Shown: in pieces, positions 8,928-64,000 of the stretch
Layout of the letters: the number at the start of each line of letters is the position of its first letter
Position numbering within the stretch: position 1 is the stretch's first letter
Assembly (NCBI GenBank): GCA_951406725.2
Contig: OX597823.1
Location: 23,870,001 to 23,934,000 of the forward strand
Origin: Octopus vulgaris
Lineage: Eukaryota
DNA length: 64,000 nt
Direction of reading: 5' to 3'
Translations under genes and position numbers: made by a program
The notes under the pieces: generated by a model
Told to the model about the DNA's origin: nothing
The model's database searches: none
Seen by the model: only the letters and a program-made list of their open reading frames with translations

Positions 8928-9167
8928 CTGTTGAGAGCCTGTTTTTGAAAATAGACGATGCAATTCTGGATGTATCTGGGAAAATATTGTGGCCTAAGAA
9001 AAATGCAACAGCAGAAGCCTGTAAAACAAAATGTCTGTCTGACATTGATTGTTTATCATTTGAAATAAATGAAGGAAGTGGTCAATGTTACTTATCAAAG
9101 GAAAGTGCAGCTCATTCCAACAAATTAAAGTCAGCCAAAGGCACAGATTACTACCAACGAGAGCATT
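8928..9167 (+). CDS. Exon A1, PAN/Apple domain type A
   Basis: atttcAG|ct...cat t|GTaatt; VESLFLKIDDAILDVSGK...ACKTKCLSDIDCLSFEINEGSGQCYLS...DYYQREH has the PAN core C-x3-C-x5-C-x2-F-x8-C-Y-L. Confidence 0.9.
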
Positions 9168-12100
9168 GTAATTATTATTTATATTTTATTATTGGGCTCC
9201 TCTTTTTCTTTTGTTCTGAATTTTGTGATTCCATTTGCACTTAATAATATATAAGCAATTATTTCTGTAAGAACATTGAGAGGTTTACCAATGAGGAGAA
9301 GACAGAAATACATTCCTGTGAAAAAGATAAAAGACAAGAACTGTATACACTGTTAAAACATTTTGATACAACATGTGTTCAACAGGAATACGTTTCTCTA
9401 TATTTTCAGTTGTTTTTTTCTTTTTTTAAGTCATAAAGGAAGCAGTTGTTCTTTTACTTAAACCTGAAGAGTAGCAGCAGCAACATTTGCAGTAACGAGT
9501 TTCTATTCATTTGCCAATTTTGACATGACTTATTGCTGGTACAGCACAGTGTTTCACAAGGGATGTTATGTTCTACATAACACGATATACAAAATAACGG
9601 AGAAAAAATGCCAATCTACAGAGTCATGTATTTTGTACATTTTGACATGGTTGCTATGTCTAGATACCCTTCCTATCATCAACCATTATACCACATGAAG
9701 AAAGTACATTTTCTCATGCTGCTATAATTAGAGACACTTTACTAGGACTCAAAAGTACTTTACCTTATATAGGTTTGTATTCAGACTAGTTCCATAGCAT
9801 TAAAAATATAAGAGCCAGCAAATTCACTCAGTTTGCTCTTAAAGATTTTGTGTATTCTTTTTGAAATCCTTCAACCTTGAAATCCTAGACATGAGGGAAA
9901 ATTCACTAGGTTTATTGATTGTAATATTAAGATACTTGTGCATGCAAGTATGTCATTACTATCATGATAAACCTTTTGGGCCAAAAAGAAAGTTTGGCTA
10001 TTTCTTTGTGAGGAACTTCAAGTAGGCTGGAATGAAAGAAATTACTGCAATATATACCCTGGGCCCCCTCAAAAAGTTCAAACTTATTCACAGATTATTT
10101 TCGTACAGAGACAGTTTCAACTAATATGAACAGCCATCCCCATAAAGGGACAGGAATCAAGAAATTTGATTTAAACATAAAGATTACTAGTAAGATTTTT
10201 ATTGAAAGTGAATTAACTTACAAAATAGCTATGGTTATTATTTTTAGAAAATTAGTTATTCATATTTTGTCCTGACAGCAAGAAAAGTATTTACATAAAC
10301 AAATGACTAAACTGAAACAAAATGAATTATTCTTGGTTGGCAAACAACTTAGACTGCGCTTTGTTACTGAAAACTATAATGATGGTATTGGTGGTGGTAA
10401 TGGTGGCAGCAGTGTTGAGTGGATAGTAAAAAGTGTAGTTTTTTTTCTTAATTTAACCTAATTTTTTATATTGCCTATCAGTTAAGGTATGTACATCAGT
10501 ACAATTATTCATTGTCTGCTCACTTGAAAATAGATATTTGTTAATAAACTATGAATGTATGCTAACAAGAGAAAGAATGAAACAGTATAGGCAATAAAAT
10601 TAAGAGAAGCATACTGTTGAATCACTAGAACAATTGTGGAAACATCAAAGAATATTGAGTGAATATTTACAACGGATATGTTCAAAATAGTATATAAAAT
10701 GAAAATGAGAGAAAACATTAAAAAAAAACCCTGTAAATATATGGTTGAAAGTTACAACATTGGTGATGTGAATATTCTCTGTAATCATTGTGAAGATTGT
10801 AGATTTGTAAATGAACCTCTCAACTGCTGAAAGAATGGGAAAATCATGCTCCTTCAATTATATACATTTAAAAGGTGCTTTTAAATGTATATAATGCAGA
10901 ATATACAATTTATAAAGAAACACTAATTTTTGTGGCTCTGTATAAACTTACAACAATCTAAAAATGTTTGTACTTACTGCATAATTTTCACAGTTATTGC
11001 TAGTTGTTGTTATTATTTTATAGATATTTTAGAAATATTATATAGTTATGTAGAAGTAACATATAAATGAAATTTTGAATAAAATATGAGATGCTTTGTT
11101 ATTAAAATGGACAATTCATTATAATATCATGATCCATCCACAAAATAACTTTCCAACATAAGTTAGCCTCCTTAGAATAAATGTGAAACTGATTGCCTCA
11201 TGAGTCATACTCAAACCTTTGCCTGAATGTTTTTATTTTGGATAATCCATTTAGACGTTCTTCTCCTGATGGTGTGCTCTTATTTAAGATTGCCTGGTTG
11301 TTACAACAGACATCTTAGTTAATCATGTGTTAAAGGAAGTTTTTACCTTACAAAAGCACACCATCAGGTTAGTGATGTACAAAAAATTGTCTGCAACCTG
11401 GAAATTGAGACAAGTTTTAAAATGAGTCTTAAGGATGTTCTAAGACTCAGGTAAATTGTTTTGTAACTTGTGGATCATTTTGTGAATCAGTTATTGGTGT
11501 ATAATGCATGTATGTGGGCATATGAATGTGCATGTCAGCTTATAAAATGTATTTCTTCTTTTTCTTCCAGCCAATAATGAACATTTCATGCTTAAAAAAG
11601 TTAGCATACCAGTGGGGGATATTTTAGGACAGCATAAGAATAAGACCTTAAAGGAATGTAATGAAAAATGCTACAGATATCATGGCTGTAATTCTTACCA
11701 GTACAGTGAGGAAAATAAATTATGTGTTCTGAGTAATGTGACTCAGTCGACCGATAAACTTAAACCCAGCAAAAAAAAAGTAGATGTGTACATAACTAAC
11801 CCTGGTCAGTAGACTATTTTCATTTTATTTATTATATGCATGTGTGTGTGTGTGTGCTGCAATGCTGCAGGGCAATGAGACATGGGCTTTGATCTCAGAA
11901 GACATGAGAAGACTAGAAAGAAACGAATTGAGCATGCTCTATTCACTATGCAGATGTGTGCATATATGACGTAGTATAAATGCGCTGAATGCAAAACTGG
12001 TTTTAAAGAGAAATCAGATGTAGTGTGCCAGAAAGAAGACTGTGCTTGTATGGACATGCTTTGCGTATGGATAACTAAAGACGGGTAGAGTTTGTGGATG

Positions 12101-18100: not shown

Positions 18101-21100
18101 ACCACTTTTGTGGTTTGTCAACATCATGTCCCTTCAGGTTGATGGCCCTGCTCGATCTGTAGAAAGGGTGTAGGTAGATACTCTATAAAATGTACCCAAG
18201 TGTAAGCTACGGACACATAAGAGGTGCAGCAATATCAAAGGAAGACTAACTGGGAAGATAGTTTTTGTATGTGGCAGATGCTCAGGAGCATAAACACTAA
18301 GTATTTGTGGTTAGTAATGTTTATTATGCTAGCACTGCTATTTCTTATTTGATTTCATTCTTACATATGCATTGTTTGGACATACTCACTCATGGTTTGC
18401 ATGCTATGTGCATATAAGTCATGACCTATGAAATGATTCATTTCCAATTATGTTCAGGTGGATGATATTAAGAAGACATTGATGTCCATCACTCCTAGAC
18501 AAGATTAGAGATGAGTTGTCTCTTCTGTCCATGACTTTCAGGTGTTGTAACACCTCTTGGGTTAAGAGAGAATTCTTCACCATGCCAAATGTCTGCCTAC
18601 CAGCAAATACATGGTGCATGTGTAGGTTATGTCATGTTTCTGTGGAAGACATCATGCATGTGATTAGCAGCTGCCTTACAATGTCATCGTAGTATTCCCT
18701 CTGTATTCAGCATGATGTTGTTGCAAAAACAATTTACAATGTCATCTACAAAAAAGACTGTCCTGAAATAAGCTTTGAAAATCCATCTGTTATGGAATAC
18801 ACTCAGAAACACCAACTCAAGGAATACTGGTGGAATATTCCCATCAAAACTTCTATCAAGCCAGATAGAGGAGACAGAGGAGAAAAGGTATGTACCATTA
18901 TAGAGGTCAGTTGCCCTGCAGATATTAACATCTCTTTGAAAATCAAAGAAAAAAAGTATGTCTATGTACAACTGCTTCGAAACCTCCAGCTTCTACATGC
19001 AGACTATGAATTCATATTCATATCAATAATAATTTTAGCACTAGGTTTTGTTAGTAAATGCTTAAAGGAGAATGTGGATGAACAGGGATTTTCAGATGAA
19101 GAAATTGACCAGCTGACATTACAAATGCAATCTGTGAGTTGAACAGTAAAAGTATGCAAGACTCTTCTAAAGTTCCAAATGTGAATTTTTCTGTGTACTG
19201 ACTCAACATACTGCACACATACATGCATACATGCAAAAATACCCTATTGATGTTGAAATTCTAATGAAGGAGTGCTGTTTCTAGTTTAGAAACTGGCTCT
19301 TTCTTTATTGGCAAGAAATCTTTGAAAATAACTGAATAATACATATACACACACACTTATGTGCATGTTTTTTATCTTTGTGCAAATTTCTTCCATTTGT
19401 TTCACTCTATATATTTCATTGTAACATTCTCATATCCTAATTTTCACCTTCCTCCCATCATACATGCAGCATCTATATATGTTTCTGTTATCATTTCCAG
19501 TTTTCTCAAATATTAACTGTGGATCTCCAAAAGATGTTGCTGGTGCATTCAAGTTGTACAATAGCACCACCTATCAATCTGAAGTGATCTATACTTGCTC
19601 AGATGGAGAACAACTAAAGTCAGAATGTGAAAAGGACAATAAATGGACTCCTGTAGCATCTGTTTGTAATGGTAACGTAAATAGTTTCTCTCTTGTCATT
19701 GTCTGTGTAATTTTGTGTGTTAAATGGATTTGTCAGAGAAAGTCTGGTTGATTCCATGACAATTTCCACTGTGTTTGTGGCATGTGGGAGGAAGAGAGGA
19801 ATCTAGTAGTGTCAGCCCACAAGTCCTTCCCAAATGCTTGCAACAGGGTGGACATGAGTAATTGTACCCAAGGGCCAGGAATTAAATTAGGTGATGGAGT
19901 AAAGTCTGCCAACCAAACAGTGGAAATGTGGAAGCTTGTTCCCAACAGTAGGGTTCTACATTGATTCCATCTACCAACTTTTCTTTAGCTGTGAAGCATA
20001 TTTTTAAGCACATGACCTATTCCCTCTTCTACCATCCTCCATCCCACCTTTCGTTCTCCCTCACATATCCACCTAACTACCTGCATGCAAACTGCTTCCT
20101 TCATATACCAGCCATTTCTAGCTCCCACTGTGTTTTCAAAATCTTGTGACTCACCCACCTTGCTGCCCTCTCCAATCCCCAATCCATTTCACTATAAACA
20201 CCACCCTGTAACTTGGGTGTACAACTCCTACTTCCCTCTCTCATATTTTCATTGTCTTTTTCTCTGTTTTCTCTCCTTCATCAGAGGAAGACATGTCTCT
20301 TTTCTAATGCAAGATCCACTTATTTGGTGGCCTCACTCAGCCGGTGCCATGCATAAATCATCCAGTACACTCTATAAAGTGGTTGACATTAGCAAGATCA
20401 TCCAGCCACAGAAACCATGCCACAACAGACAGAAGAACTTGGTGCAGTCTTCTGATTTGCCTGTTTCTATTAGACTGTCCTATACATACCAGCATAGAAA
20501 CTAGATACTAAATGATGATGATCCTGATGATAATGACCATGATTCCACTCAGTACCACAGGCTTGTGAAGTAAACTTCTTGCTCTTAAAGTTACACCTGA
20601 ATATTTCTATGCAGATCTTCACTAAATTTCTAACATGGCGTTTTCCACTTGTACCATGTATCATTATCCAAAACCCTGTGCAATATTATGCAATATAATG
20701 AGTCATTATCGTCATCATCATCATCATCACCGATTAACGTCTGTTTTCCATGCTGGCATGGGTTGGACGGTTTGACTGAGGTCTGGAGATCTAGTGGCTG
20801 CACCAGGCTCCGAACTGAACTGGCAGAGTTTCTACAGCTGGATGCCATTTCTAACGGCAACCAATCCAAGATTGTAGTGGGTGCTTTTTATGTGCCACCA
20901 GCACAAGAGTCAGTAAAGTAGGCCTGGCAGCAGTCACGTTGGGATGGTGCTTTTTATGTGTCACCAGCACAGGTGCCAGTCAGTGGGTACTGGCGTCGGT
21001 CACGATCAGTTGGTGCTTTTTATGTGCCACCAGCACGGGCCAGTCAGTGGGTACTGGCATCGACTGTATTCGGATGATGCCTTTTATGTGCAATTGGCAT

Positions 21101-25700: not shown

Positions 25701-28700
25701 ACACAAACAGTAACCAAATGTAGCTATAAAAAGTGGTGACCAACTATCCTGTCCCACTCAATATCTTTTCTTCCAAGTTTATCTCCTCATTCTTTCCCTC
25801 CTTCTAATACATGCAGCAATGATAAACATCTCTGTTTTCAATTACAGAATATGCACAAATAAACTGTGGAACTCCAAAAGATATTGCTAATGCATTGAAG
25901 TCTTATAAAACCTCCTCCTATAAAGCTGAAGTGACCTATACTTGCCCAAAGGGAGAAAAGTTAAAGTCAACATGTGAAAAGGACAACAAATGGACTCCAA
26001 TACCTTCCGCTTGTAAAGGTAATGTAAATAGCTTCTCTCCTGTTGTTTCGGTCTGTCTATTAATATTTGATTTTTGCATTAAATGTTTTTGTTAGCAGAA
26101 TACTGGCTGACTCCATGACAATTTCTGTAGTGTTTTTGGCTGGTGGGAGGAAGAGAAGGAGCTGTCCTCAGACCAGAGATCTCTCCATATGCTTGCAACA
26201 GAGTGAACTCCTTTAATACTAGCCAAGGGCCTAGTAATGCTGTTAAATTGGGTGATTTGAACTGATAGACTAAACAGCATGAATACCCACTGTAAAAGAA
26301 ATACACTTGACATGTAATTGTCCTCCTTCTCCTCCTCCTCATCGTCATCATCATCATCATAACTAATGCTCATTTTGCAAGCTAACCTGGGCTGAACAGT
26401 TTGACAGGTTTCAATGATATACAGATTGCATGAGGCCCAAATGTCACTTCTGGTATGGTTTCTGTTTCTTGTTGCACATCCTAGCACCAACCACTTTACA
26501 GTGTGTACTGGGTGGTGCGTTTTTTCATGAAACTGGCATTAGTGAGGTCAGCAAACAACTTGAAAGACAAAGTAAAAAGAGGAATAGGGCGAAAAGCTTC
26601 TCCGCCATGTTAATCTGTACTGGAGGGAGGAAAAATAGCATTATGCTAGGTGGTGTAGGTAAAAGTATGACAAAGGGACAAGCACAGGTATCTTGCTATA
26701 GAGGAAATACATGACCACCCCAGTTTTGCAAGGGTGGGTGAGGGTAGTTGGAAGGGAGAAAATGATGGTGGTGACATATATCCTGATCATACTTTCTAGG
26801 TACAAGAAGGTGAGTATCAGGAAGAATATAGCGAGGTGGAGAAAAAAGTGTGGATAAATTAATAAAAAGTATGGTGGGAGAGTTAAAAAAACAGTTAGAG
26901 ATTGGGCTATAGGTGGATGGAATGAGTGATGAGAAAGAGTGAAGCTGTGGTTGATGGAGGGGGAGGTAAGATATAGAAGTGGCGCAGGAAGCAGGAGGTG
27001 ACAAGCAGCAGCACAGGAGAAGTGAAGGGCAACAGTATCATATACGTTTTGACATGAGAAAGTAGGAAGATAATGTGCAGGTGTTAGATTGTTGGAAGGT
27101 GGGTGAAGAGTGCGGCAAATATGGAGGTGGCTAATGTGAGTGGGACACCAAAGTTGGTGGGGCCATTGATAGTGAATATGAGAAAATACTGAGAATGATG
27201 ATACATAGGAAAGGTGTTAACCATGATGCATGGCAGACCTTTGATTTAGCTCAGAGTGGAAGGAGAGATTAATGAAAGCACAGAAAAGGAGTAATTGGTG
27301 GAAAGTAGTATGACAGGGATGATTATGAGAGTGAGATAACTGGTTGTGACAAAGTGAGGATGAAAAATGTGCTGATTCTGCATCTCAAATGATTTAAGCT
27401 GCTGAGTAGTGCCATGTACACACTGAAAATAAAGATGAGTATGTTTGCTGCAAACATCTCAGACAAGATTGTCGAGTGGCAGTTCTATGACTAGATTTTT
27501 ATCTTGAAGTGGTAGAACCATTTGGTAGCTTTGCAAAACCAAGTATTTAAGGAAGTTCACCATGGTATTCCCTGACCAAAAGTTTTTCAATTCAAATTTG
27601 TCAGTTAGTTTTCATTGATGTTCAGCGAAAACTGTTAGAATACTAGTGCTCTAACTCTCAATAGATTGCTAGAGTGGGATATCCACCAATTCTATTTATC
27701 CATGTCAGATTTCATCCAGTGTACTTCATCTTTTGTAATCCATAGGATTACATTAGACAATGTGGCCATCCCCTTTACATAAAATGGTGGTGTGTGATTG
27801 AGGGAGAGTTTGTTACTATTTCTATCATAAGGGCCTTCATAGTAACTACCTCATGACAAGTATTGAACTTTAATATTGCAATCTAACAAATCTGACATAG
27901 CTTATCCTCAGTTGCCTGGTTCAACATCACCACCTGGTCCTTCAGCTGGTCATAACAATGGTGATGAACGATACTTGCTCTAATGTTTATATACTCAGTA
28001 CAATATCAAGCGTTCATATTGAACCACAAATTTACTCAAGTTTGATATTTTGCGTTCAGATTGCTGTCAAATGTAATGTTTATTTCTTCACATTTAAAAA
28101 ACATTAAATTAATCATGCATCATCTTGTAGCTTGAAGTTTTCAATGATGTGATTATTTTGTTATAGAATGACATTGTAGGTTAGATATGAAAGGCTGGTT
28201 ATGGCTGATTTAATCATAAAGCAGGTAGAATATTTGGGCTGGATTAAATGCTAAAGGGTTAATCACAAGTGTAGGAAGGTTGGTTGCCTCAGAATTTCAT
28301 GTCATTGTTGTTTCTGTCATGGCTAGCTTATTAAAAAATCTAAATAAACTCATTGAATCAATTATGTATTCATTGTTTAGGGTGATGTATTCACAGAATC
28401 ATTCTAGCGTCAGACAAAATGTGTTGTATTTTTCTAAATCCTATTAATGTGGATTTTCCTCTTCCAGAGCCAATAAAATGTAGGGGCCATTTAAATTTTA
28501 TTGGTCCTTTTAGGGCCAAATTAATTGGCTCCTACCTCAAAATTTTGGTCTTCTCTCTATGTGAGAAATTAATAGTATTATTGTTAGTTTTCATTCTTCT
28601 CTATCTTATTTTGACTCTAGATGTTCAGATCCATTTTGTGAAAGTAAAAAATGCAGCTCTGGATGTAACAGGGAAAACATTATGGAGTAAGAAAAAAGTG

Positions 28701-43600: not shown

Positions 43601-45361
43601 CAAACTCAGATCCTTGGACTCACACAACACATGATGGTGATGATCATCTTCATCATTTAGCAACTACTTTCTGTGCTGGCATGGATTAGACAGTTTGACT
43701 GGAAATGGCAAGCGAGGGAGCTGTACCAGGTTTCAGTTTCATTTGGCATGGTTTGTATGGCTGGATGCCCTTCCTAGTGCTAATCACTTCAAGATTGTAG
43801 GGGATGTGATTTATATGTCACTGGCATAGGTCCTTTTAAGTGTCATTAGCCACGACCATGATTTCACTTAGCCTGATGAGTCTTCACAAGCCAAGCAAAT
43901 CACTAACAGTCTCAATCATTTGTCATTGTCTCTGTGAGACCCAACATTTGAAGATTATACTTCACCCTTTGTCCCAATTCATGTTTTTACTTAAAGAACA
44001 GCTATGAGAAATATACTCTGGTTCACTTCCTGCTTAGAAAACAAATAGTAGAGTGGCTGCTTCTTGAACCAAGATATTATGTTAATGACTTATTCTGGTC
44101 ATCAGATTCAGAAAAGACTGTAAAGTTTATCAGTTATTTGTTTTCTTTTATCTTATTTTTGTGCATATTACAAAAATATACTTTTACATGAATAAAATTT
44201 CATTGCCTGTTACATTAGGTTTTTAGTATTCCCATTTTCTACATATTTATATTTAGTCATTCAAAATGATGACAGTCATGTTGTAACATTGGTAAAGTCA
44301 TGTCTTGCAGTGACTAGCCATATTTAGTTACCTTCTTTTATATTATGAATTCAAATCCCATCTGAATATATATTCATCTTTCACTATTTGGAGGTCAATA
44401 AAACTAGCATTAGTCGAGTACTGAGTTTCATTTATTCATATGCATTCCCACTGCAAAATGTGTTTGCATTAGAAACCATTATCATACACATAATTGATAT
44501 CAACAATAATTATAATTATTCCCGTTGTTAAAGTTAATGTATTCACAGAATAATTAGTGCATCAGACAAACTGTGTTGAGATATTGTTTTGGCACATCAA
44601 CCTCTGATTCCAAATCCTACTGATGATAATTTTGCCCTTGCAGGCCCAGTAAATTAAAATAATATTTAAGCATAGAGGCCATATTTTATTGATTAGCTCC
44701 TTAAATTTTTGTCCTTTCTATGTTAGAAATTATTAATATTGTTATTGTTTTTGACTTACATTCATCTAAATCTTACTTCAATTCCAGTCACTGAGCTGCA
44801 TTTTGTGAAAGTCAAAGATGCAATTTTGGATGTATCCGGAAAACGGTTGGTCAAGGAAAATGTAACAGCTGATGTTTGTGCTGAAAAATGTTTGTATAAT
44901 TCAAAGTGTTTAGCATTTGAAATAACTAAAGAAAGTGGAAACTGTTACTTATCTACACAGACAGCAGCTTCCTCTATGAAAATTAAATCAGACAAAAGCA
45001 GAGATTATTACCAACGAGTAAAATGTAATTATTATTTGTATTTTATTATTGTTTTTCTTTTTCTTCATTTTCTGAAATTTGTGAATCCATTTATACTTCA
45101 TAGTATATAGATAACCATTTCTGTAAAGACATTGACAGATTTACCTATCATGACAAGTATAGACATGTTCCTGAAAAAGACAAAACAATATTAGGAACTG
45201 TAAATACTGAGGGTATTCTCATACAGAATTTGTTCACTTTGAACTATTTTATGCATGTTTACAATAATTCTTTTTTATACCAGAAAGAAATCTCTTGTTG
45301 TTTGCTGTAAACTTGAATAATTGCATTGGTGGTGGTAGTGGTGGTGGTAGTGGTAGTGGTG

Positions 45362-47411: not shown

Positions 47412-47462
<51 letters not shown>

Positions 47463-48149
47463 TAAATAAATTAGAGACAAAACCACTATTATGCAAATCA
47501 AACAAAGAAAGACTTAAGCCAATACATAAAATAATTTATATAATTAAATTTAATTAAAATAACCACTACGATCGTTTCGTGTCAGCACTTCTATGAGACA
47601 TTCTTCAGGTGGTTTCAAAACCTAAAATATAATCAATATTTTTAAGATATAAATAATCTATATAATCTAAATAAAAATTTACTTATAATAAACTCTATTA
47701 TTAAATATGATTATATCGAAATCGACTATAATGTTAAATATTAACTTTAATTTGGATTTTCTACCTTATAAATTAAAGTTAATATTTAACATTATAGTCG
47801 ATTTCGATATAATCATATTTAATAATAGAGTTTATTATAAGTAAATTTTTATTTAGATTATATAGATTATTTATATCTTAAAAATATTGATTATAATTTA
47901 GGTTTTGAAACCACCTGAAGAATGTCTCATAGAAGTGCTGACACGAAACGATCGTAGTGGTTATTTTAATTAAATTTAATTATATAAATTATTTTATGTA
48001 TTGGCTTAAGTCTTTCTTTGTTTGATTTGCATAATAGTGGTTTTGTCTCTAATTTAATATAATATAATATTTTACTATAAAATTGGATTCAATCCTAAAT
48101 CTGATTTTTCCCTGTAAATTTGGATTTATTCCCTATATATTATATTTAT

Positions 48150-48188
<39 letters not shown>

Positions 48189-49290: not shown

Positions 49291-49328
<38 letters not shown>

Positions 49329-52300: not shown

Positions 52301-53154
52301 TGAAATTTTGAATAAATTTTAGAAAGCCATCCAACTCAGTATTTTTCCTGGTGGCAATTTATTATAAAAACAGAATCCATTTTCAAACCAGTTTTTAGCA
52401 TAAGACACCTTTCTCAAAATTCATGTGAATTCCGGTATATCACGAGACATAATTGAAATTTCACCTTCATGATTCAGTTGCAGATAATGCATTTGTACAT
52501 CCCTCTTCTGACAGTGTGTTTTTATGTTTGATTTAATGGCCACAACAACAATTGACTCATTCATCAACCATCTGCTGAATAGTATTCCATCCCTATAAAA
52601 ATACAACATTAGAAGCGGGAATATATAAATGTGTTATGTGCAACTTAAGTTTTGAAACACAGAACAAATGACTTTCAGGAGGTGCTACATTTCACATGAA
52701 TCCTGACTAAGTTGTCATTTTGTGTATCAATTATTTGTTTATAATAGATTATCTATTTAAAACATATTATGCACCAGATGTTATATAATATTCAATGTGT
52801 GAGTTTAAGAATTTATTTCTTGTTTTTTTTTTCTCTAGCAAAAGAAGACATTGTTACATTTAAAAAAACTCTTATAAGAGGGGAAGATAGTTTTGAACGA
52901 CTGACTGATGTGAGCTTAATGGAGTGTGCTAAAGCTTGTAATCTAAATCCAAGTTGTAATTCTTATGAGTACAATGAAAAATTTAAGCTCTGTGATCGAA
53001 GTAATGTGACTCACTTGACTCATGACCTTCAACCCAGCAGAGGGAATTGGGATGTTTACATCAGAAACCCAGGTCAGTGGTGTTTGTGTTCTATTTTTAT
53101 GTGCGTGCTTTCATGTGAGTGCGTTTGTATGTTTGCCATATATATGTGTATGTA

Positions 53155-53200
<46 letters not shown>

Positions 53201-53479
53201 GCACGTAAAAAGCACCCAATCCACTCACGGAGTGGTTGGCGTTAGGAAGGGCATCCAGCCGTAGAAACTCTGCCAGATTCAGACTGGAGCCTGGAGCGGC
53301 CCCTGGCTTCCCAGACCCGGTCGAACCGTCCAACCCGTGCTAGCGCGGAAAGCGGACGTTAAACGATGATGATGATGATGATATATATCAATCTGTTTTA
53401 TCTACTATCTATTTATCTATTCATCTACCTGTCTATATATATGTATATACACACACTTATACATGTATATATGTGTATA

Positions 53480-53512
<33 letters not shown>

Positions 53513-54027
53513 TATAATAATAATAACAACATACAGAAAAGAAAATTGCACTACTAGGCACTGCACACATCCTACACAGAACACTTTCCATACAATAACC
53601 ATCAGAGCATCACAACAAATCACAGCACATACCCAAGGCACACAGAGCTGCGCTCGGTAGTGAAGTGAAAGCACGCTATAAAAAAAATAAAACTACTGAA
53701 TAATAATAATAATAATAATAGGGAATATGATTCCAAACTTACAGGGAAAAATTCAATTTAGTAATACTAAATCAAATTTCACAATATATAATATATGTAT
53801 ATAAATTAGAGAAGAACCACTATGTAGCAATTGAACAATGATATAATTAAATCATACCATATAGAAAAAAATTAAATATACTATAAAACATATACCTATA
53901 ATTAAATAAAGTACAAAATAATAAATAAATAGTATATAATTGGTAAAAAGACTACATGTGTTTCATTGCTATATTTTCAAACTGATAGCAGTAAAATCAA
54001 TTCAATTTAACTATAGTCAATTTAAAT

Positions 54028-54086
<59 letters not shown>

Positions 54087-57000
54087 TGGATCAAAATAGT
54101 ATGATTCAAATTTGTTGGAGCTCTTGAGTTTCAAGTGTAATTTTCAGATTCAAAGTGGCTGACAACTAGCATCATGCTTGAAATTCATGAGTACCAACAA
54201 ATTTGAATCAAACCGTTCTGATCCATACATGTAACTCCCAATAAGTTGGTTGAGTGCCCTTGTCATTTGTCCTTTCACTTGTGTGTGTGTGTATGTATAT
54301 ATGTATGTATATAAGTGGTGGAGTGGGATATGGCCTAGTCACCCGTATAGGTAATCAGGTTGTTCACAAGGGAGTTATACCCATTGACTGGTGTAGCAGC
54401 ATTATAGTCAACTGCTACAAAGGCATGGGCCATGCCCAGGACAAAAATAGTTACAGAGACATCAAATTGCTGGACCAGGGGGTGAAAATTACAAATACAA
54501 TCTGTTACCAGAACAGTAAAACTATACAAGACTTTGTGACATTCCTTTTGTTATCAACATTTCAAAGATGGAGCTTTGTATTTTTGTTAGAAACCAGCAC
54601 CTTCTTCAGTGGAAGAATTTAAATGATAAAACAGAAGAGAAAAATGCATTCATACATACATACATACATACATACATACATACATACATACATTTTATAA
54701 GGTACGTTTTTATATTCCTGTGCAAATTTCTTCAATTTGATTCACTCATTATTTTTTATTTATTGTATTGTTATTTTTGCCCTATTTTCACCTCCCTCTA
54801 AACATGCAAGGACCATTTGTGTCAATTTCTCTTTTCATTTCCAGATTTTGTATTAATTGACTGTGGAACTCCAAGAGAAGTTTCTGGTTCATTGAAGTCC
54901 TATAATTCCACCAACTATAAATCTGAAGCCACTTATACTTGCCCAAACGGAGAACAAGTGAAGTCAGTGTGTGAAAAGGACAATAAGTGGACTTCAGTAC
55001 CATTTTCTTGTAAAGGTAACATAAAATGTTTCTCTCTTGTTGCCTTTGTCTGTGTAATTTTGTTTTACTTTTGTGTTACATGTCTTTGTCGGAGGATGAG
55101 TGGCTAGCTTAGGTAGATTTGTGGCTGGTAGGTGGAAGCTTACAGATCACAGATGTCCCCAAATACTTGCAAATGGGTGGGATGCATTAATTCTGGTCAA
55201 GGACCAGGTAATGGTATTAAACTGGGTGATGGATGCTGTCTACAAACCGAGAGCTGGAAGTGTAGAAACTAATTGTCACCAGCAAGCTTCAACACAGATT
55301 CCATCCACAAAATTTCATCCACAAGACTTAGCTGAGAAGTAAATTTTTCACTACACAGCAAAAACTCCATGCAAAACCACAATGTTATCTCCACTGTTAT
55401 GCCTCATGTCATCTTGGCCATTTCTCACTTAATTTCTAACTTGACTTACTCACCCATACTTTGTGTCATCAATCAAAACCCTTCACATTATAATACCTTG
55501 TGTCCATCTTTACTAAAACATGGCAATACTCTGAAACAGACTTCTGATGCTCTTATCTTCTAATCCACCACCCTTAATCATGATAATATTAATAATAATA
55601 ATGAGTCCTGATTTACACACAAAGATAGCAAGTTATGGTGGGAGTTGTTTCGTCAATACCATCAACCATATTATTTGACTGGTACGTTATGTTATTATGT
55701 TATATCACACAAGTATGAAAAGTGAACGGATAACCAAAAGAACCTGAGTACATACCAGAAAGCATTTCTTCCAGTTTTCCAGTTAGTATACACATAAACA
55801 ATGGAATAAAAAAAAAAAGAAAAAGATGGGGATGATTTTGTGATAAACATTAATGTAGCAGGACTTTGGTCTAGGACCAACTGAAGAACCCTATCTCTGA
55901 AAATCACCCTGAATTCCGTGCATAAGTTTGCTCTGCAGTTATTGTTCTCTAACTTACATGTTTATGCCCTGTGGCCCTTTTTGCTACTTTCACCTTACTT
56001 TCAATAATCATCTCTGAGGACAGTATCTTCCTTTCTATTCTCACTTTCTTTGCAAGGGAAACTTCAAAAATACAAATGAGGGATTGGCTAAACAGGAAAG
56101 TCACTCTCATCTGATCTATCAACCATATCCACCTTGTGATCTCTTTTGCTATCGCCACCAAACAGGAAGACTGACTTCTTTGATTGGTTGAAGGAATGTG
56201 TGAAGCAATCATCATGATAGGCTTGTCTCATAGCCAGATCTATCCCATACTGAAGACCATCTGTTTGACATAACTGCAAGTTAACAGTATATGGAAAATG
56301 AAAGATTTCATGCAAAATTATTTATTTTTACCACAAGTATCTGTGACGGGCTTGTCTGATGCACTTCCATGCCTGTAGATTTTATCTTGGACCAGTAGAG
56401 TCTTTTTGCAGCACTACTGAGCCAAAGAATTAAGAATGTTATCCATAGAAAACCCTGAACAAAAGCCTTGAAAAAAAATAGCCACTTCAGTTTCATTGCT
56501 ACCCAGAGCAACCCTGAGAATATCAATACTCTATCCTACAAATCCTCTTGCTCAGGTTTGACATAGCATACTATATCTGAAATCTTTAAGATTAAGTGAG
56601 ATAGTGTAGCCCAACTCTATCCTACAAATCCTCTTGCTCAGGTTTGAGATAGCATACTATATCTGAAATCTTTAAGATTAAGTGAGATAGTGTAGCCCAT
56701 TCTTTTTAATACTTTTGAGTATGATTGAAGGAAATTTTGCTTATCAGTCTTAATATGTTGTGCATAGGTGTGGCTGTGTAAGCTTGCTTCCCAACCACAT
56801 AGTTCTAGGTTCAGTCCCACCGTGTGGCACCTTGGACAAGTGTCTTGGTCTATAGCCTCAGGCCAACCAAAGCTTTGTGAGTGGATTTGGTAGACAAAAC
56901 AGAAGGAAGACCATCATATACAGGGGGTAATGGGTAAATTGTCACTATTTTGTACTTTTAATTTCTTGCATGTACTTTGTTTATTTTTGATTTTGTTGAC

Positions 57001-60000: not shown

Positions 60001-60505
60001 GCCAAGTCTCTTCCTATGAATTTGCATTGCACCTACCATATCTCAGTGTCTAAGATAAGACACAATATCATCAGTCTTTGCCTCTGCTTTCCACGTCCTT
60101 GCTGTTTTCACATCTGGTGGATTACACCTGATTTCGATGTCCTTCAGCTCTCTCAGCATCATCACCATTTGCACCTTCCCTAGTTTATAAATTTCTACTA
60201 CATTTCCACTATTGACACCAGAGGCAACGAGCCTCTTTTATAATAAAGAGCTGCACTGTTCAGTATCTGAGGTAGGCCTAATCACTTTCTAATGAACACA
60301 TTACATTTTTGTTCAATGATTTGAACTCATGACAATGCTACCTCATATATTAAAAGTGGCCACGAAAGTCACAGATACATGCCAATCTGTAAGTACCAAA
60401 CTTTATATTTATCTGGTAACTTTCCAGACATTTGTACATTACTGCATATGCTTTATATGCACTTTTGACAAGTTGTAGTGCACCTGAGCACTATATACAA
60501 TAATT

Positions 60506-60566
<61 letters not shown>

Positions 60567-63500
60567 CATTATGGTTTGAGTCCAGAGATGATTTGCCATG
60601 TGTTTTATGATCAGACAATTCACACTTCTCTGGCCTCTTCTTACAAGCCTTTCCCTGATGTATCTTCAAGTCACTTTTGGTTACAAAGGTCCTACAGCAC
60701 AGCTTACATCCAAAGTTGTTTGCACTTAATTCACTGTTCAAAGGAATAGCTGTATTCATGTCCAAGGTCATTCCCGTGTTAACTAAGTTTCATTGATTCT
60801 CGACTCTCCACTCTTGGTCAATCACGGGGCTGTTATTCTCATTGGTATCTGTTACAACAAGTTAAAAATGCAAGGATTGTAAGTCTGCAGCCTACACCAG
60901 TCTTTCCTGGTGTCAATAGACTTTCCCACTGTCAGCTTGTCTTTCCGAGCAGTCCTCTTGTCTTTCAGGATGCCTAACCGTCTTTCCAGTCTGTCAGTGA
61001 TTACCTACAATGTCTTAGATGTTCTTCAAACAACTTGCACATGCAAGTGCTACCAGTTGCAAACTCCACATATCAGAAGCCAGCAAGTGTATGGGGTCAT
61101 CAGGAGAGAATTTGTGCCATTTCAGGGCCTGCCTCTCTATAGCATCAATGTGCACTGGCTCCCCCCAGTGATATGAGGCCCTGCTTGCTAGATCAACTGA
61201 TTATCAAATAAAGCTCAATATTCTTCTAGCCATCCCTTTTTACCAAATTAATCACTAGGGGAAAATACACATGTCAACTTCCTGCATGAAGAAAATATTA
61301 AAAATCAGCTGTTGACTGAACAGCAATATCATATTTGATTAAAATTTCACCCTTTGTGGGTGCTGAAATCATTATGTCAATGACTTATTTTGGTCATGAG
61401 ATTCGCAAGTGACAACCTTGTAAAAAACAATCACTTTTTCTTCATCTCACTAAAAGTATAATTTTGATTGAGAATTTCTTAGCTTGCTACATTAAGTTGT
61501 GAGTGTCTATATTTACTATGTATTTTTATTTCTTCACTAGATAATGAAAGTGAAGTTATTTTTGTTTTATAAGGCAAAACTTTGCAAGATCAGTTAATTG
61601 ATGTGTTACAGTCCTTGTCATGACTAAGTATAGTTAGTGATATCCATTTACATAGTGGTTTGAAATCACAACAGAATATATTTCACCTTTCATACTTCTG
61701 TGGTTGATGAAATGAGCATTAGTCATATACCGAGGTTGATATATTGTCATGTACCTTCACTGCAGAGTGTGTATCTTTAATATTGGTTACTTCAACAATC
61801 ATTATATTTTTGTATTCTTGTTGTGACGAAGGGTGATAGATCGACAAAGTCATTTGAGCATCAGTCAAAATGTGTTGTGGAATGTGTTCTGGCTATTTGA
61901 CTTTTGAGCATAAATCCTGCCGATGCTGAATTTGCTCTTCTTGGGTCAATAAAATGTAATGCTTGTCTGGTGTAGAGGCCAACCAAATAGACTTATTCCT
62001 TCCTCTAAATCTTGGCCTTGTTTCTCTATTTCAATGTATTGTTGTTGTTATTGGTATATTTCATTGCCTTAAATTTTATTTTTTAATTCTAGATTCTCAG
62101 ATCCATTTTGTGAAAATAAAAGATGCAGCTCTGGATGAAACAGGGAAAACATTGTGGAGTAAGAAAAAAGTAACACCAGATGCATGTGCTGAAAAATGTT
62201 TTTCTGACAAAACTTGTTTATCATTTGAAATAACTAAAGGAAGTGGACTCTGTTACTTATCAAAGCAAACTGCAGCTTCCTCCAAGAAAATAAAAACAGA
62301 CAAAAGCAGAGATTACTACCAACGAGTAAAATGTAATTATTGTTTTTGTACTTTATTATTGGATTTTTCTGAATTTGTGATTCCATTTGTACTTCATAGT
62401 ATATAGACAACTATTTGTGTGAAGACATTGACAGGTTAAGAATGTTATCCATAGAAAACCCTGAACAAAAACCTTGAAAAAAAATAGCCACTTCAGTTTC
62501 ATTGCTACCCAGAGCAACCCTGAGAATATCAATACACTATCCTACAAATCCTCTTGCTCAGGTCAGGTTTGACATAGCATACTATATCTGAAATCTTTAA
62601 GATTAAGTGAGATAGTGTAGCCCATTCTTTTTAATACTTTTGAGTATTATTGAAGGAAAACTTAATCCATCCAGAAAATTATGTTTTAGCAAAAGACTAT
62701 CTTCTCAGAATAAATAAGAATTCTGGTACATCATGAGACATACATGAATGCTCACCTGAATATTTTGGTTGTACATAGTGCTTTTGTACATGCATCTTTC
62801 GATAACATGCATTTATTTAATACTAGTCCAACCCATGCTAGCATGGAAAGCGGACGTTAAATGATGATGATGATGATGATGATGCATGGCCATTACCACA
62901 ACACATGATACATTGATTAGCCATCTGTTTAATGGGGTATCAACCTTAATGTTGCCAGTATGTTTGGAGATGTTCTACCTCTCTCTCATGAATTCTTAAA
63001 AGAGTGTCAGTTTGTGAATCAACTATTTCTTTCTTTTACTTTTTAATTGCTCTATAAGACTTTGCAGCCATGCTGGGGCACTGCCAAAAAGAATTTTGGT
63101 CAAATGAGTTAACCCCAGTAGTTGTTTTTTTTTTTTAAGCCTGGCACTTATTCTAACAGTTTCTTTTGCCGAACTGCTAATTTATGGTGACATAAGCACA
63201 CCAACATAAGTTGTCAAGCAGTGATAGGGGATACACACATACACATGCACAATGAGCTTCTTTCAGTTTTTGTATGCCACTCATAAGGATTTGGTTGGCC
63301 CAAAGCTATAGTAGAAGACACTTACCCAAAGTGTCACGCAGCAGAACAGAACCTAGAACCATGAGGTTGAGGAGCAAACTTCTTACCACTCAGTCACATC
63401 TATGCTTGTTTATAATGAATTTTTCATTTGCAAAATTATGTTTCAAATGCTTTAAAATATTTAATACATGCTAAGATGTGTTAGAATGTAGTTGTTTTCT

Positions 63501-64000
63501 TTTTTCTGTATTTTCAGCTGACAAGCCTCTTCAAATTAAGAGAGTTAGTATATTAGAGAAGGAAACTTTTGGAAGGCTTATGAATGTGAACTTAAAGACG
63601 TGTAATGAAGCTTGCTTTCAATATCCGGATTGTAATTCTTATGAGTACAATGAGAAAGATAAATTATGTGATCTAAGCAGAGTGACTCGGTTGACTGATC
63701 AATTTAAACCCAACTATGGAGTTTGGGATTCATACACAATCACCCCAGGTCAGTAGAGCATTTCCGTTTAATTTCTTGAGTGTATATATGTCACCCCCCC
63801 CCCCCCACACACATACATACATATCTGTGTGCCAATATCTTCTGATTGTTTCACTCAGTATCTTTTATTCTAAATCTGTCATTATCTCTTCATTCTCACC
63901 CTCTTCCTAATATGTACACATCATTGATATCAATTTCTCTTACTCACTTTAGTTTACATGAAAATTGATTGTGGACCACCGAAAGATATTGCTGACACAT
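8928..64000 (+). CDS. Partial multi-exon gene encoding an extracellular (PAN-PAN-Sushi)n repeat protein, join(8928..9167,11571..11804,19501..19671,25848..26018,28621..28857,34267..34497,41188..41358,44788..45024,52839..53072,54845..55015,62093..62332,63518..63748,63953..>64000)
   Basis: 13 exons with polypyrimidine-AG acceptors; 12 complete with GT donors, all phase 1-1. Lengths are 240/234/171/171/237/231/171/237/234/171/240/231 nt plus 48 nt partial, 2616 nt in all, with no stop codon. Cys spacing of PAN and CCP domains is conserved and N-glycosylation sequons (NAT, NVT, NST, NKT) are present. Both gene ends lie outside the window. Confidence 0.88.
11571..11804 (+). CDS. Exon B1, PAN/Apple domain type B
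   Basis: ttcttccAG|cc...cct g|GTcagt; TLKECNEKCYRYHGCNSYQYSEENKLCVLSNVT...DVYITNP. Confidence 0.9.
12690..14850 (-). mobile_element. Two decayed RTE LINE fragments in tandem
   Basis: Minus-strand frames DNFYYLGDQIS..., NFRELLSLLVTK, WKQNLESKGLKINL.KTKV, PFLFIII.QAITE. Confidence 0.75.
14855..16180 (+). mobile_element. Decayed RTE LINE 3' half with 3' UTR
   Basis: YADDL at about 15040, Cys-rich insert, RW.GHV-like motif and the shared gtaaaaagcacc.../aggaa.gcatccag tail. Confidence 0.8.
16180..17140. mobile_element. CR1/Jockey-group LINE fragments (+ 16180-16780; - 16820-17140)
   Basis: VRDLGI, ILRTFRT, DYCSQLW, YIWKILEGIVPNFGI on +; LQNDLNAI..NNMQFNAK on -. Confidence 0.75.
18640..19190 (+). 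mobile_element. Decayed non-LTR element with RLE endonuclease (R4/Dong-like) 3' end
   Basis: HVISSC...HDVVAKTIYN, YWWNIPIKT..KPD...IIEVSCP.D.NI...EK..Y, IIILALG: the CCHC/RHD/PD..E/K-Y layout of RLE elements. Confidence 0.7.
19501..19671 (+). CDS. Exon C1, Sushi/CCP domain
   Basis: atttccAG|tt...aat g|GTaacg; CGSPKDVAGA...VIYTCSDGE...CEKDNKWTPVASVC, with the 4-Cys and Trp pattern of CCP modules. Confidence 0.9.
20715..22470 (-). mobile_element. RTE LINE 3' half with 3' UTR and (GAT)n tail
   Basis: Minus-strand LSPLLFIIVLQ, ELLCANDL, MLHSSETWAM..RRLERNEASM.HWMC, GRHRKTCD; same family as 1-1620. Confidence 0.85.
22710..23210 (+). mobile_element. RTE-type 3' UTR/SINE-like repeat with internal aaaaagcaccatcc subrepeats
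   Basis: Matches the tails at 1300-1620 and 53195-53380. Confidence 0.7.
23400..24950 (-). mobile_element. Highly decayed LINE RT relic
   Basis: Minus strand LIFVDDI at about 24150-24172 and FTDF..K at about 24310-24330. Confidence 0.45.
25064..25189. repeat. Minisatellite, 3 x 42 bp
   Basis: Unit cagtgttcgtaggattgttacttaactccacgacactcatta starts at 25064, 25106 and 25148. Confidence 0.85.
25848..26018 (+). CDS. Exon C2, Sushi/CCP domain (extra copy not preceded by A/B exons)
   Basis: attacAG|aa...aaa g|GTaatg; INCGTPKDIANALKSY...VTYTCPKGE...CEKDNKWTPIPSAC; 171 nt, open frame. Confidence 0.87.
28621..28857 (+). CDS. Exon A2, PAN/Apple domain type A
   Basis: actctAG|at...aaa t|GTaatt; ACAEKCFSDKTCASFEILKTSGLCYL...DYYQRVK. 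Confidence 0.9.
30060..31470 (-). mobile_element. RTE LINE fragments
   Basis: ICGKGVGRNSVRCTQCKLWTHKRCS...VDNFCYL...WANFRELLSLL; QERQLCWYGHVLCM...GKPSKT. Confidence 0.8.
32080..33520 (+). mobile_element. Ty3/Gypsy integrase relic with PPT and start of 3' LTR
   Basis: HDAHFG...C..C zinc-binding motif, PWTK.GADLF, RDNGLQF and PQSN.QGER rve motifs; PPT aaagaagggaga (33389-33400) followed by TGTAA at 33401. Confidence 0.82.
34267..34497 (+). CDS. Exon B2, PAN/Apple domain type B
   Basis: ttaccAG|ct...cca g|GTcagt; SLNECNEACQQYEGCNSYEYNDQDKLCGLSNVT...WDVYIINP. Confidence 0.9.
35227..35320 (-). ncRNA. Type I hammerhead ribozyme motif (stem II decayed)
   Basis: Minus strand: cagctatct-CTGATGA-gtgc...atga-GAAAC-tgattg-GTA-agaccagctg. 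Confidence 0.55.
35891..35982 (+). ncRNA. Type I hammerhead ribozyme motif (GAAA mutated to TAAA)
   Basis: cagctacct-CTGATGA-gcat...atgc-TAAAC-caattg-GTA-agatcagc, with palindromic stem III. Confidence 0.5.
36380..37450 (-). mobile_element. Penelope-like element relic with GIY-YIG endonuclease
   Basis: NIIHVLKCRGCDEDYIGQTSLTLRDRLMVHRQQI...KES.LIKKYKPQL (37045-37332). Confidence 0.75.
37580..38420 (+). mobile_element. Tc1/mariner transposase relic
   Basis: LVFTDEKK, VWAAVTATG, LQQD.A.SH and W.SR.PDLN.LDFSV motifs. Confidence 0.8.
38540..39600 (+). mobile_element. Second Tc1/mariner transposase relic
   Basis: WS.ETHFKLNG, PFFFEGTVTG.AYL.ML, APPHY and SP.LTPVDFLLWG motifs, frameshifted. Confidence 0.7.
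39640..40545 (+). mobile_element. RTE LINE fragment
   Basis: YADEL, Cys-rich insert, HSSETW; same family as 1-1620. Confidence 0.75.
40555..40880 (+). mobile_element. Tc1/mariner 3' fragment
   Basis: NIW..NSPDLNPLAYYV motif. Confidence 0.6.
41188..41358 (+). CDS. Exon C3, Sushi/CCP domain
   Basis: tttccAG|tt...aaa g|GTaatg; DCGPPKDITGA...VIYTCPEGE...CAEDDKWTPVASSC. Confidence 0.9.
42200..42810 (+). mobile_element. RTE LINE fragment
   Basis: VDNFCYLGD, WRKFIELLPLL and WFGHVV motifs. Confidence 0.7.
44788..45024 (+). CDS. Exon A3, PAN/Apple domain type A
   Basis: attccAG|tc...aaa t|GTaatt; VCAEKCLYNSKCLAFEITKESGNCYLS...DYYQRVK. Confidence 0.9.
45326..45420. repeat. Compound (GGT)n(TAG)n microsatellite
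   Basis: Read directly. Confidence 0.9.
47561..47614 (-). ncRNA. Mirror copy of the minimal type I hammerhead ribozyme
   Basis: Reverse complement of 47909-47962 in the left palindrome arm. Confidence 0.72.
47909..47962 (+). ncRNA. Minimal type I hammerhead ribozyme (Penelope-type)
   Basis: aaccac-CTGAAGA-atgtc[tcatagaagtgct]gacac-GAAAC-gatc-GTA-gtggtt: 6-bp stem I, conserved core, palindromic stem III, GUA cleavage triplet (cut after 47956); the first stem II pair is A-C instead of G-C. Confidence 0.75.
48270..49170 (+). mobile_element. CR1/Jockey-group LINE 3' fragment
   Basis: MQFNASKFQAL...DLGIEMSN...ILRTFQTRD...LDYCSQLW...LEAVQR...SYWDRLKEL (ORF 48361-48777). Confidence 0.85.
50192..51068 (+). 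mobile_element. Internally deleted mariner element with TIRs
   Basis: Imperfect TIRs tgagtcggtatcaagaagttcc / gaaccttttgataccagctca; NVKFCVKLGKSATE and PYSPDLAP motifs. Confidence 0.85.
52839..53072 (+). CDS. Exon B3, PAN/Apple domain type B
   Basis: ttctctAG|ca...cca g|GTcagt; SLMECAKACNLNPSCNSYEYNEKFKLCDRSNVT...WDVYIRNP. Confidence 0.9.
53195..53382 (+). mobile_element. Young SINE/RTE-tail repeat between (TG)n and (GAT)n
   Basis: CpG-intact copy of gagtggttggcgttaggaagggcatccagc...aaagcggacgttaaacgatgatgat. Confidence 0.8.
54028..54085. repeat. (GATA)n microsatellite
   Basis: Read directly. Confidence 0.9.
54085..54227. mobile_element. Small foldback/MITE-like element
   Basis: About 55-bp imperfect inverted arms (tggatcaaaatagtatgattcaaatttgttgg / ccaacaaatttgaatcaaaccgttctgatcca) flanked by TA. 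Confidence 0.6.
54845..55015 (+). CDS. Exon C4, Sushi/CCP domain
   Basis: tttccAG|at...aaa g|GTaaca; DCGTPREVSGS...ATYTCPNGE...CEKDNKWTSVPFSC. Confidence 0.9.
55880..56734 (-). mobile_element. Penelope-like RT relic
   Basis: Minus strand QTDGLQYG...AYHDDCF (RT motifs B and C) at about 56200-56275. Confidence 0.5.
56528..56699. repeat. 86-bp tandem duplication
   Basis: 56528-56613 and 56614-56699 differ by one base. Confidence 0.92.
56765..56915 (+). mobile_element. tRNA-derived SINE 5' part
   Basis: A/B-box-like tgtggctgtgt...ggttcagtccc followed by ggcaccttggacaagtgtctt; a minus-strand copy lies at about 63030-63400. Confidence 0.65.
56921..58193 (+). mobile_element. Near full-length decayed Tc1/mariner (maT/DD37D-like) transposon
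   Basis: TA-CAGGG...CCCTG-TA ends; MVFGMITNDG, YVWQQNSSPYHTS and IWPHN motifs in ORFs 57186-58007. Confidence 0.85.
58870..61245 (-). mobile_element. Decayed HERO/R2-group non-LTR element flanked by about 200-bp direct repeats
   Basis: N-terminal zinc finger CKLCCRTFVTKSDLKIHQGKAC; RKISW..IW...LGFLI.S.YD.L.SLANL.RW...CKC...TLKHILSN...ALNR; direct repeats at about 58876-59075 and 61028-61233. Confidence 0.72.
60507..60571. repeat. (ATT)n microsatellite
   Basis: Read directly. Confidence 0.9.
62093..62332 (+). CDS. Exon A4, PAN/Apple domain type A
   Basis: aattctAG|at...aaa t|GTaatt; ACAEKCFSDKTCLSFEITKGSGLCYLS...DYYQRVK; close paralogue of A2. Confidence 0.9.
62436..62659 (+). repeat. Near-identical copy of 56430-56734 (with one 86-bp unit)
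   Basis: ttaagaatgttatccatagaaaaccctgaac...ttgagta.tattgaaggaaa; a few substitutions and a tcagg duplication. Confidence 0.9.
63518..63748 (+). CDS. Exon B4, PAN/Apple domain type B
   Basis: ttttcAG|ct...cca g|GTcagt; NLKTCNEACFQYPDCNSYEYNEKDKLCDLS...WDSYTITP. Confidence 0.9.
63953..64000 (+). CDS. Exon C5 (5' part), Sushi/CCP domain, cut by window end
   Basis: cactttAG|tt tac atg aaa att gat tgt gga cca ccg aaa gat att = YMKIDCGPPKDI; the upstream intron matches that of C3. Confidence 0.85.

Follow-up and report, generated by a model that had tools for sequence, protein, structure and literature searches.

Two giant proteins provide the closest described points of comparison for the locus analysed here. 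Drosophila Dumpy, with a mass of 2.5 MDa, is encoded by 78 coding exons and comprises more than 300 EGF modules arranged in EGF-DPY-EGF units (PMC10895422, in the part of the text available). Titin (connectin) reaches 38,138 amino acids, encoded by 363 exons over 283 kb (PMC12198301, likewise in part). In ADAMTS9/GON-1, the GON domain promotes endoplasmic reticulum (ER)-to-Golgi transport (PMC3338439, in part). The locus compared with them lies in Octopus vulgaris, where a window of 64,000 nucleotides (C10:23,870,001-23,934,000; contig OX597823.1) is situated wholly inside a gene model on the forward strand, C10:23,362,495-25,003,050. When the 349 coding exons of this model, spread over 1,640,556 bases, are joined in order, the result is a sequence of 73,017 nt that encodes 24,338 residues and contains 0 internal stops. 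With good probability the array of repeated modules at its core is one gene, and a full-length product of about 24,300 residues is reasonably to be expected. The interpretation that we favour on balance is a single chain of 2.74 MDa with a titin-like super-repeat of 13 modules, which would form a micrometre-long, polyvalent glycan-binding filament and derive from a small molluscan PAN-Sushi-GON protein that was expanded a hundred-fold within octopods. The role proposed for this chain, a secreted scaffold cross-linking acidic glycans in a gel or an apical matrix, is put forward tentatively.

An array of 343 PAN and Sushi exons

When the modules of the window were used for a translated search of it, exactly 13 exons emerged, all on the forward strand and arranged as A B C C A B C A B C A B C, where A denotes PAN-A, B PAN-B and C Sushi/CCP (Table 1). 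Every exon has AG/GT ends, is in phase 1 on both sides, has a length divisible by three and encodes four cysteines and no stop. The initial annotation, made from the window, had described these 13 phase-1 modules in the same order, with intact splice sites, uninterrupted frames and conserved cysteines, and had placed the first acceptor at position 8928, all of which is confirmed. The domain assignments made there are borne out by a Pfam scan of 12 of the 13 exons, from which the last exon, cut by the window end, was omitted: all eight A and B exons match PAN_1 (PF00024, E 2e-8 to 3e-11) and all four C exons match Sushi (PF00084) above the curated cut-off. Module searches detect no A or B exon between the two adjacent Sushi exons of the window (exons 99 and 100). 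Such C-C doublets are a regular feature, occurring 31 times in the array, and the O. bimaculoides model P0001 likewise contains the doublet of the window.

The same modules recur far beyond the window. A single exon of each type, searched against the genome, returned 111 (A), 110 (B) and 134 (C) matches, nearly all of them free of stops and located on the forward strand of C10 between 23.27 and 24.98 Mb; four A and four B matches are weak and lie on other contigs. Profile searches of both strands of C10:23.17-25.17 Mb, 2,000,000 bases without N, yielded 348 module matches (107 A, 107 B, 134 C), 348/348 on the forward strand. Removal of three modules of an upstream gene and of two broken fragments leaves 343 repeat exons (105 A, 105 B and 133 C), all in phase 1-1, of which the window holds numbers 97-109; two intact B exons needed ends set by hand. 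When the best acceptor was chosen without regard to phase, phase 1 resulted in 343 of the 348 matches. Within the array A is directly followed by B in 105 of 105 cases, and four cysteines are found in 209 of the 210 PAN modules and in 129 of the 133 Sushi modules, whose consensus also has the tryptophan expected of the domain. The introns have a median length of 4.0 kb and do not exceed 19.4 kb. The (PAN-PAN-Sushi)n architecture proposed initially describes the modules correctly but missed the super-repeat and the full size, namely 343 repeat exons, a span of 1.64 Mb and a predicted product of about 24,300 amino acids.

Two trivial explanations are ruled out. An assembly artefact is excluded by the lack of gaps, by copies that are 18-99% alike and not identical, and by collinearity in two other species. 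A graveyard of pseudo-exons is excluded by the absence of stops: the exon copies differ by at least 10,828 bases along a minimum spanning tree, and neutral drift over this distance predicts about 551 stops, whereas 0 are seen.

Table 1. Module exons of the window (window positions; numbers denote repeat exons 1-343 of the array) and parts of the complete gene model (C10 positions)
Feature	Position	Strand	Basis or remark
PAN-A exon 97, phase 1-1	8928..9167	+	Pfam, splice sites
PAN-B exon 98	11571..11804	+	Pfam, splice sites
Sushi/CCP exon 99	19501..19671	+	Pfam, splice sites
Sushi/CCP exon 100	25848..26018	+	Pfam, splice sites; second of the C-C doublet marking the 13-exon super-repeat
PAN-A exon 101	28621..28857	+	Pfam, splice sites
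PAN-B exon 102	34267..34497	+	Pfam, splice sites
Sushi/CCP exon 103	41188..41358	+	Pfam, splice sites
PAN-A exon 104	44788..45024	+	Pfam, splice sites
PAN-B exon 105	52839..53072	+	Pfam, splice sites
Sushi/CCP exon 106	54845..55015	+	Pfam, splice sites
PAN-A exon 107	62093..62332	+	Pfam, splice sites
PAN-B exon 108	63518..63748	+	Pfam, splice sites
Sushi/CCP exon 109	63953..64000, to 64123 beyond the window end	+	171 nt in the genome; remainder taken from the adjoining sequence
Signal-like exon	C10:23,362,495-549	+	Likeness to upstream paralog region
30-nt exon	C10:23,363,457-486	+	Likeness to upstream paralog region
343 repeat exons	C10:23,364,742-24,983,168	+	Profile searches
Four GON exons	C10:24,990,060-25,003,050	+	O. 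bimaculoides model P0004, ends in stop

The introns carry transposon remains, with matches to reverse transcriptase (RT), an integrase zinc-finger and GIY-YIG in three of nine open reading frames tested from the window. The initial view of a region full of dead transposons agrees with these remains but does not extend to all elements. Two intronic open frames of 1,078 and 1,059 codons on the reverse strand (C10:23,378,074-23,381,307 and 23,618,585-23,621,761) look by eye like young copies of long interspersed nuclear elements, and a similar frame of 671 codons matched RVT_1; therefore not all intronic elements have decayed. Near-identical reading frames about 2.1 kb apart at window positions 5041-5711 and 7186-7802 suggest a duplicated intronic element. 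Moreover, the intron between the adjacent Sushi exons contains 66/132-bp tandem repeats on opposite strands (20880-21091 and 22722-23035). The only dead modules among the 348 are the two broken fragments, a PAN-A at C10:24,195,917 and a PAN-B at 24,207,898, which lack splice sites and lie beside intact copies. At C10:~24,093,500 a PAN-B exon has a shortened N-terminal part, as it does in the O. bimaculoides model P0008. PAN-A- and PAN-B-like exons, 32-43% identical to the array, are also situated on another contig (L206 and L207, C13:19.92-19.98 Mb); they resemble short multi-PAN (Argonauta P0043) and PAN-WSC (P0140) proteins and are a possible source of the A-B pair.

Ends, growth and constraint

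The O. bimaculoides model P0004 continues from the array into a GON domain (PF08685, E 6e-33). When the first GON exon was searched against the genome, two of 11 candidates proved to be matches, one at the end of the array and one at 23.285 Mb, where it ends a small intact paralog. This paralog of about 465 amino acids (C10:23,269,851-~23,294,200, L020-L023) lies directly upstream in the same orientation and is composed of a signal-like exon, a 30-nt exon, A, B, C and GON. Its upstream and intron sequences are still alignable to the giant gene, and comparison of the two upstream regions revealed both 5' exons of the array. Only two copies each of the signal-like exon, of the 30-nt exon and of the last exon exist in the 2 Mb examined, one per gene. 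The first exon is hydrophobic, conserved with the paralog and ends in a phase-1 donor; it was called a signal peptide by eye. At the other end, the model stops after the GON domain, and neither a ZP domain nor a transmembrane C-terminus is found in it. The initial annotation had anticipated that both termini lie outside the window; the signal-like 5' exons, assigned by eye, and the C-terminal GON domain were both unseen by it. The paralog likely shows the ancestral form of the giant gene.

Growth by tandem duplication, as was suggested initially, is supported by a periodicity of 13 exons and by introns that were duplicated together with the exons. Identity between copies peaks at offsets of 13, 26, 39 and 52 exons (0.67, 0.65, 0.62 and 0.59) against a background of about 0.54. 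The unit ABC-ABC-ABC-ABC-C occurs exactly in 15 instances; rotated, it gives the 13 exons of the window. Intron blocks shared by adjacent units are up to about 95% alike; therefore whole blocks of 50-90 kb were duplicated. The array may be pictured as the product of unequal crossing-over between symmetric phase-1 exons that began with a small signal-PAN-PAN-Sushi-GON gene, the latest growth probably taking place in blocks of about 50-90 kb containing 13 exons.

The exons are also under constraint. In two young tracts, 11 indels fall in exon pairs versus 564 in flanking intron; four of the 11 are not multiples of three and are probably compensating alignment gaps, since all exons have lengths of 3n. 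The ratio of non-synonymous to synonymous substitution rates (dN/dS) is 0.69 for A (17 pairs), 0.48 for B (14 pairs) and 0.76 for C (22 pairs), values biased low by the pairing of mutually best exons. The mean identity among copies is only 46-58%, and positions of the array match their O. bimaculoides ortholog (81%) better than their own paralogs (67%).

In the databases searched the array appears only in pieces. Protein searches retrieved 12 Octopus models and four distant SVEP1 proteins. The models labelled O. vulgaris agree with tiles of the array at 100% but skip exons and divide it into at least five pieces. O. bimaculoides has at least seven models at the locus; models of this species, five of them with consecutive locus numbers (LOC128248837-841), follow the order of the array at 78-86% identity, and O. 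sinensis models map in order at 90-95% identity. Models of other species bridge 158 of the 343 junctions and 11 of the 12 in the window, with consecutive runs of 25 and 54 junctions. All retrieved array models begin within a domain and lack a signal peptide, several run on into introns at their ends, several are labelled SVEP1-like, and the longest comprises 4,470 amino acids. If the array encodes one protein, its absence as a whole from these databases would be due to gene finders, which split it into fragments.

A search of representative sequences gave 685 matches, of which the best 150 were listed, and added many short GON proteins. Among 31 GON proteins scanned, several from abalone, limpet and cuttlefish combine GON with PAN and/or Sushi. 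The cuttlefish (Sepia) protein P0025 is a PAN-Sushi-Sushi-GON protein, and a cuttlefish cluster of signal-Sushi-GON layout includes GON-Sep-2, which among named small proteins is the nearest relative, with 45% identity across the GON region, and presumably stems from a survey of the posterior salivary gland. This kinship with small molluscan proteins was missed initially. In addition, the limpet protein P0073 (Patella vulgata XP_050416304.2) joins VERL_C, Sushi repeats and GON, a case in which the GON head is combined with an egg-envelope domain. Among the named proteins listed there is no long PAN-PAN-Sushi array outside Octopus, while unnamed single-exon matches could not be placed; the notion of a lineage-specific protein therefore holds for the proteins retrieved. 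The recognition function proposed initially (immune, gamete, venom or mucus) is a candidate one.

One chain or several products

The array, with its ordered exons, splice sites and open frame, is flanked by only one pair of 5' exons and one GON end, and the 349 exons would be spliced into one coding mRNA of about 73 kb. The predicted protein has a mass of 2.74 MDa and an isoelectric point of 8.9, and would enter the ER by means of its hydrophobic N-terminus. The highest hydropathy over 19 residues (1.49) is found at this N-terminus, and no segment exceeds 1.6, so that no stretch of transmembrane strength is present. Because of the lack of a transmembrane segment and the presence of only three furin-type sites (RxK/RR) in 24,338 residues, the chain is predicted to be released whole and unanchored.

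The PAN-A, PAN-B and Sushi units are expected to fold as disulfide-bonded modules in fairly fixed orientation. For an orthologous Sushi-PAN-PAN-Sushi stretch, AlphaFold2 gave a mean predicted local distance difference test (pLDDT) of 90 and a predicted template modelling score (pTM) of 0.72, and this model suggests that the modules are held in a defined orientation. In both alignments prepared (A2 and A3) one PAN type came to lie on the columns of the other; A2 was used for the fold since it contained nine multi-domain rows beside the query. No solved structure displays the predicted tandem arrangement of PAN and Sushi modules, multi-apple structures included (best template modelling (TM) score 0.28). 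At an estimated 3 nm each, 343 modules would span about 1 micrometre.

The mean net charge per module is +7.4 for PAN-A, -0.7 for PAN-B and +2.7 for Sushi, PAN-B carries a conserved N-x-T motif, and the array contains 272 N-glycan sequons. The PAN-B fold is closest to the PAN domain of plasminogen (Z 8.5; root-mean-square deviation (rmsd) 2.5 over 70 aligned residues), followed by the N-domain of HGF (Z 7.5) and the apicomplexan lectins SML-2 (Z 7.3) and MIC4 (Z 7.2). By analogy with the HGF N-domain, which binds heparin, the strongly basic PAN-A may bind sulfated or acidic glycans. The near-neutral PAN-B with its conserved N-glycan site may be a lectin, and Sushi a spacer. About 105 basic PAN sites and about 105 glycosylated PAN sites could in this way cross-link acidic glycans.

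The terminal PAN-B and GON domains were modelled with a pLDDT of 83. For the GON fold no clear solved relative was found (Foldseek, 0 matches at E<=0.001; best Z 3.8), which does not prove a new fold. Only its first ~50 residues match the collagen C-propeptide by profile (E 1e-6), and structural comparison with fibrinogen-related and collagen C-propeptide heads gives Z 3.3 and an rmsd of 6.4 over 77 aligned residues. In the ESM Atlas, molluscan PAN-GON clusters lie beside cnidarian PAN-COLFI and PAN-fibrinogen clusters. As a lead, GON could be a distant head of the fibrinogen/COLFI type. The GON head might aid ER export, or assemble or target the ends of the chains.

Several points weigh against a single secreted scaffold chain. 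The putative signal peptide, called by eye, has only moderate hydrophobicity. Start or end exons inside the array that are unrelated to the known ones would escape the homology searches used. At 185 of the 343 junctions, including 1-45 and 204-281, none of the retrieved models of other species provides a bridge, and the bridging models themselves may be ab initio predictions and not transcripts. A search of sequencing runs listed no RNA run that contains the sequence. Four runs of guessed RNA status were compared with window positions 44501-64000, and intronic repeats dominated; no exon-exon joint or full-length transcript was detected there, the 15 joints listed of 314 all being intronic. The dN/dS values show a loose residue constraint and would also fit a diversifying recognition role. 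Finally, only the best PAN match reaches a Z of 8, and a shared fold shows no function.

Among the 32 pieces listed from these runs, two contigs leave the window exactly at splice sites: a contig of 1,109 nt from run X2 at donor 62332, with 981 letters unmatched, and one of 167 nt from run X5 at acceptor 63518, with 24 letters unmatched. Both are only 86-90% alike to the window and therefore derive from paralogous exons or from a related species. They are a weak hint at splicing and are silent on tissue and transcript length.

Of the alternatives, the one that survives best, although unlikely, is a single gene used as a combinatorial splicing cassette for shorter secreted recognition proteins, immune or microbe-binding, with a shared signal peptide and GON head. 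Since all 343 exons are in phase 1-1, any skip would keep the frame; the dN/dS of 0.48-0.76 and the low identity of the copies suit such diversity, and the nearest Atlas clusters, as leads only, are small PAN-COLFI, PAN-fibrinogen and PAN-GON proteins. In Dscam, alternative exons are grouped in mutually exclusive clusters. Here, however, the exon types are interleaved in strict order, without such clusters, and models of other species join long runs of consecutive exons.

A protein of egg coats or egg strings, or one for gamete recognition, in the manner of abalone VERL or sea-urchin EBR1, is rather improbable. Proteins of this class typically have giant repeat arrays and a relaxed dN/dS, and the limpet protein P0073 links VERL_C to Sushi repeats and GON. 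However, the octopus model contains neither a ZP nor a VERL domain, and its repeats are not homogenised, as the higher identity of orthologs than of paralogs demonstrates.

A cluster of several separate genes with unrecognised start and end exons, as in the public annotations, is likewise improbable, if slightly more so. The number of models at the locus in O. vulgaris and O. bimaculoides, the runs of unbridged junctions and the demands of a 1.64 Mb transcription unit speak for it. Yet neither the 5' exons nor the last exon nor GON recurs within the array, the largest intron measures only 19.4 kb, and the models start mid-domain, with break points in O. vulgaris and O. sinensis that differ from those in O. 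bimaculoides. The annotated break points fall after exons 45, 61, 80, 122, 137, 203, 284 and 330.

A secretion of the salivary or venom gland, either a matrix or carrier or a polyprotein cut into small PAN/Sushi effectors, is also improbable, for despite the kinship with GON-Sep-2 the furin-type sites are too few to suit it, and neither the parts of the venom papers nor the portion of a salivary-gland supplement examined mention it.

Significance and comparison with known systems

No published description of the locus or of its protein was found, subscription journals and bioRxiv supplements lying outside the scope of the search, and no characterised protein with a repeating PAN-PAN-CCP architecture was identified, in agreement with the initial annotation. 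The parts examined of PMC4280546, 10.64898/2026.04.09.716377, PMC12607849, PMC7656900 and 10.1101/2022.06.11.495763 do not mention either. In the portions examined, a supplement on octopus skin mucus gave 0 matches and a salivary-gland supplement only irrelevant ones. Among the GON-domain papers listed, none is a mollusc study by title. The available part of 10.1101/2022.06.11.495763 reports a 'svep' gene marking endothelium-like cells of the octopus optic lobe; this may be a true SVEP1 or a fragment of the array.

If the array encodes one protein, this protein is heavier than Dumpy and has nearly the exon count of titin, yet is listed only as fragments; it would be among the largest extracellular proteins of any animal. 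It would also be an octopod novelty with a visible history, as a gene of the ancestral type persists just upstream and duplication blocks of both older and recent date have survived. The locus would provide a system for studying the growth of giant proteins by exon shuffling, the splicing of 348 introns, the export of giant cargo and the role of GON domains outside ADAMTS proteases. Moreover, it suggests that other giant genes with one exon per domain may be hidden in invertebrate annotations, and the protein is a candidate for a structural role in octopus mucus, saliva or egg glue.

The fold of the PAN modules is shared with the N-domains of HGF and plasminogen, with SML-2 and TgMIC4, and with factor XI and prekallikrein. 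The latter two are serine proteases with six-cysteine apple domains packed as a disc, whereas the octopus PAN modules are of the four-cysteine type, are not joined to a protease and give TM scores of at most 0.28. In VERL-type egg receptors, ZP-N repeats are homogenised by concerted evolution; the octopus model lacks ZP, and its copies, with a mean identity of 46-58%, retain position-specific orthology. SVEP1/polydom resembles the predicted protein in being secreted and in containing Sushi repeats. However, the SVEP1-labelled fragments of the array are devoid of vWA, EGF, HYR and pentraxin domains, which true SVEP1 entries possess, and the label appears to be a transfer from Sushi matches.

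ADAMTS9, ADAMTS20 and GON-1 share the C-terminal GON domain. In contrast to these proteases, the octopus model is composed only of PAN, Sushi and GON, without metalloprotease (Reprolysin), disintegrin or TSP1; in Pfam scans of P0004 and P0017 no Reprolysin or TSP1 was found. The same domain set with a C-terminal GON is present in the small molluscan proteins of Haliotis and Patella, named 'ADAMTS9/20-like', and of Sepia (P0025 and GON-Sep-2), for which no functional study was found in the literature. These are mostly about 290-430 amino acids long with one to three modules, as opposed to 343 modules in the array, and the octopus protein fits an extreme expansion of this group, to which the small upstream paralog also belongs.

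With titin the gene has a similar exon count and a super-repeat of modules in common, but titin is intracellular and built of Ig and Fn3 modules, whereas the octopus gene occupies about six times more DNA and its product is predicted to be secreted. Dumpy ends in a ZP domain and a membrane anchor, and PAN-ZP proteins of the apical matrix have the same C-terminal features; filaments in that matrix are characteristic of the group. Like Dumpy, the predicted protein is a giant extracellular chain made mostly of a repeated, disulfide-bonded unit of three modules. It differs from Dumpy in using PAN-PAN-Sushi with one exon per module (349 exons, predicted mass 2.74 MDa) and in ending in a GON domain without a transmembrane segment.

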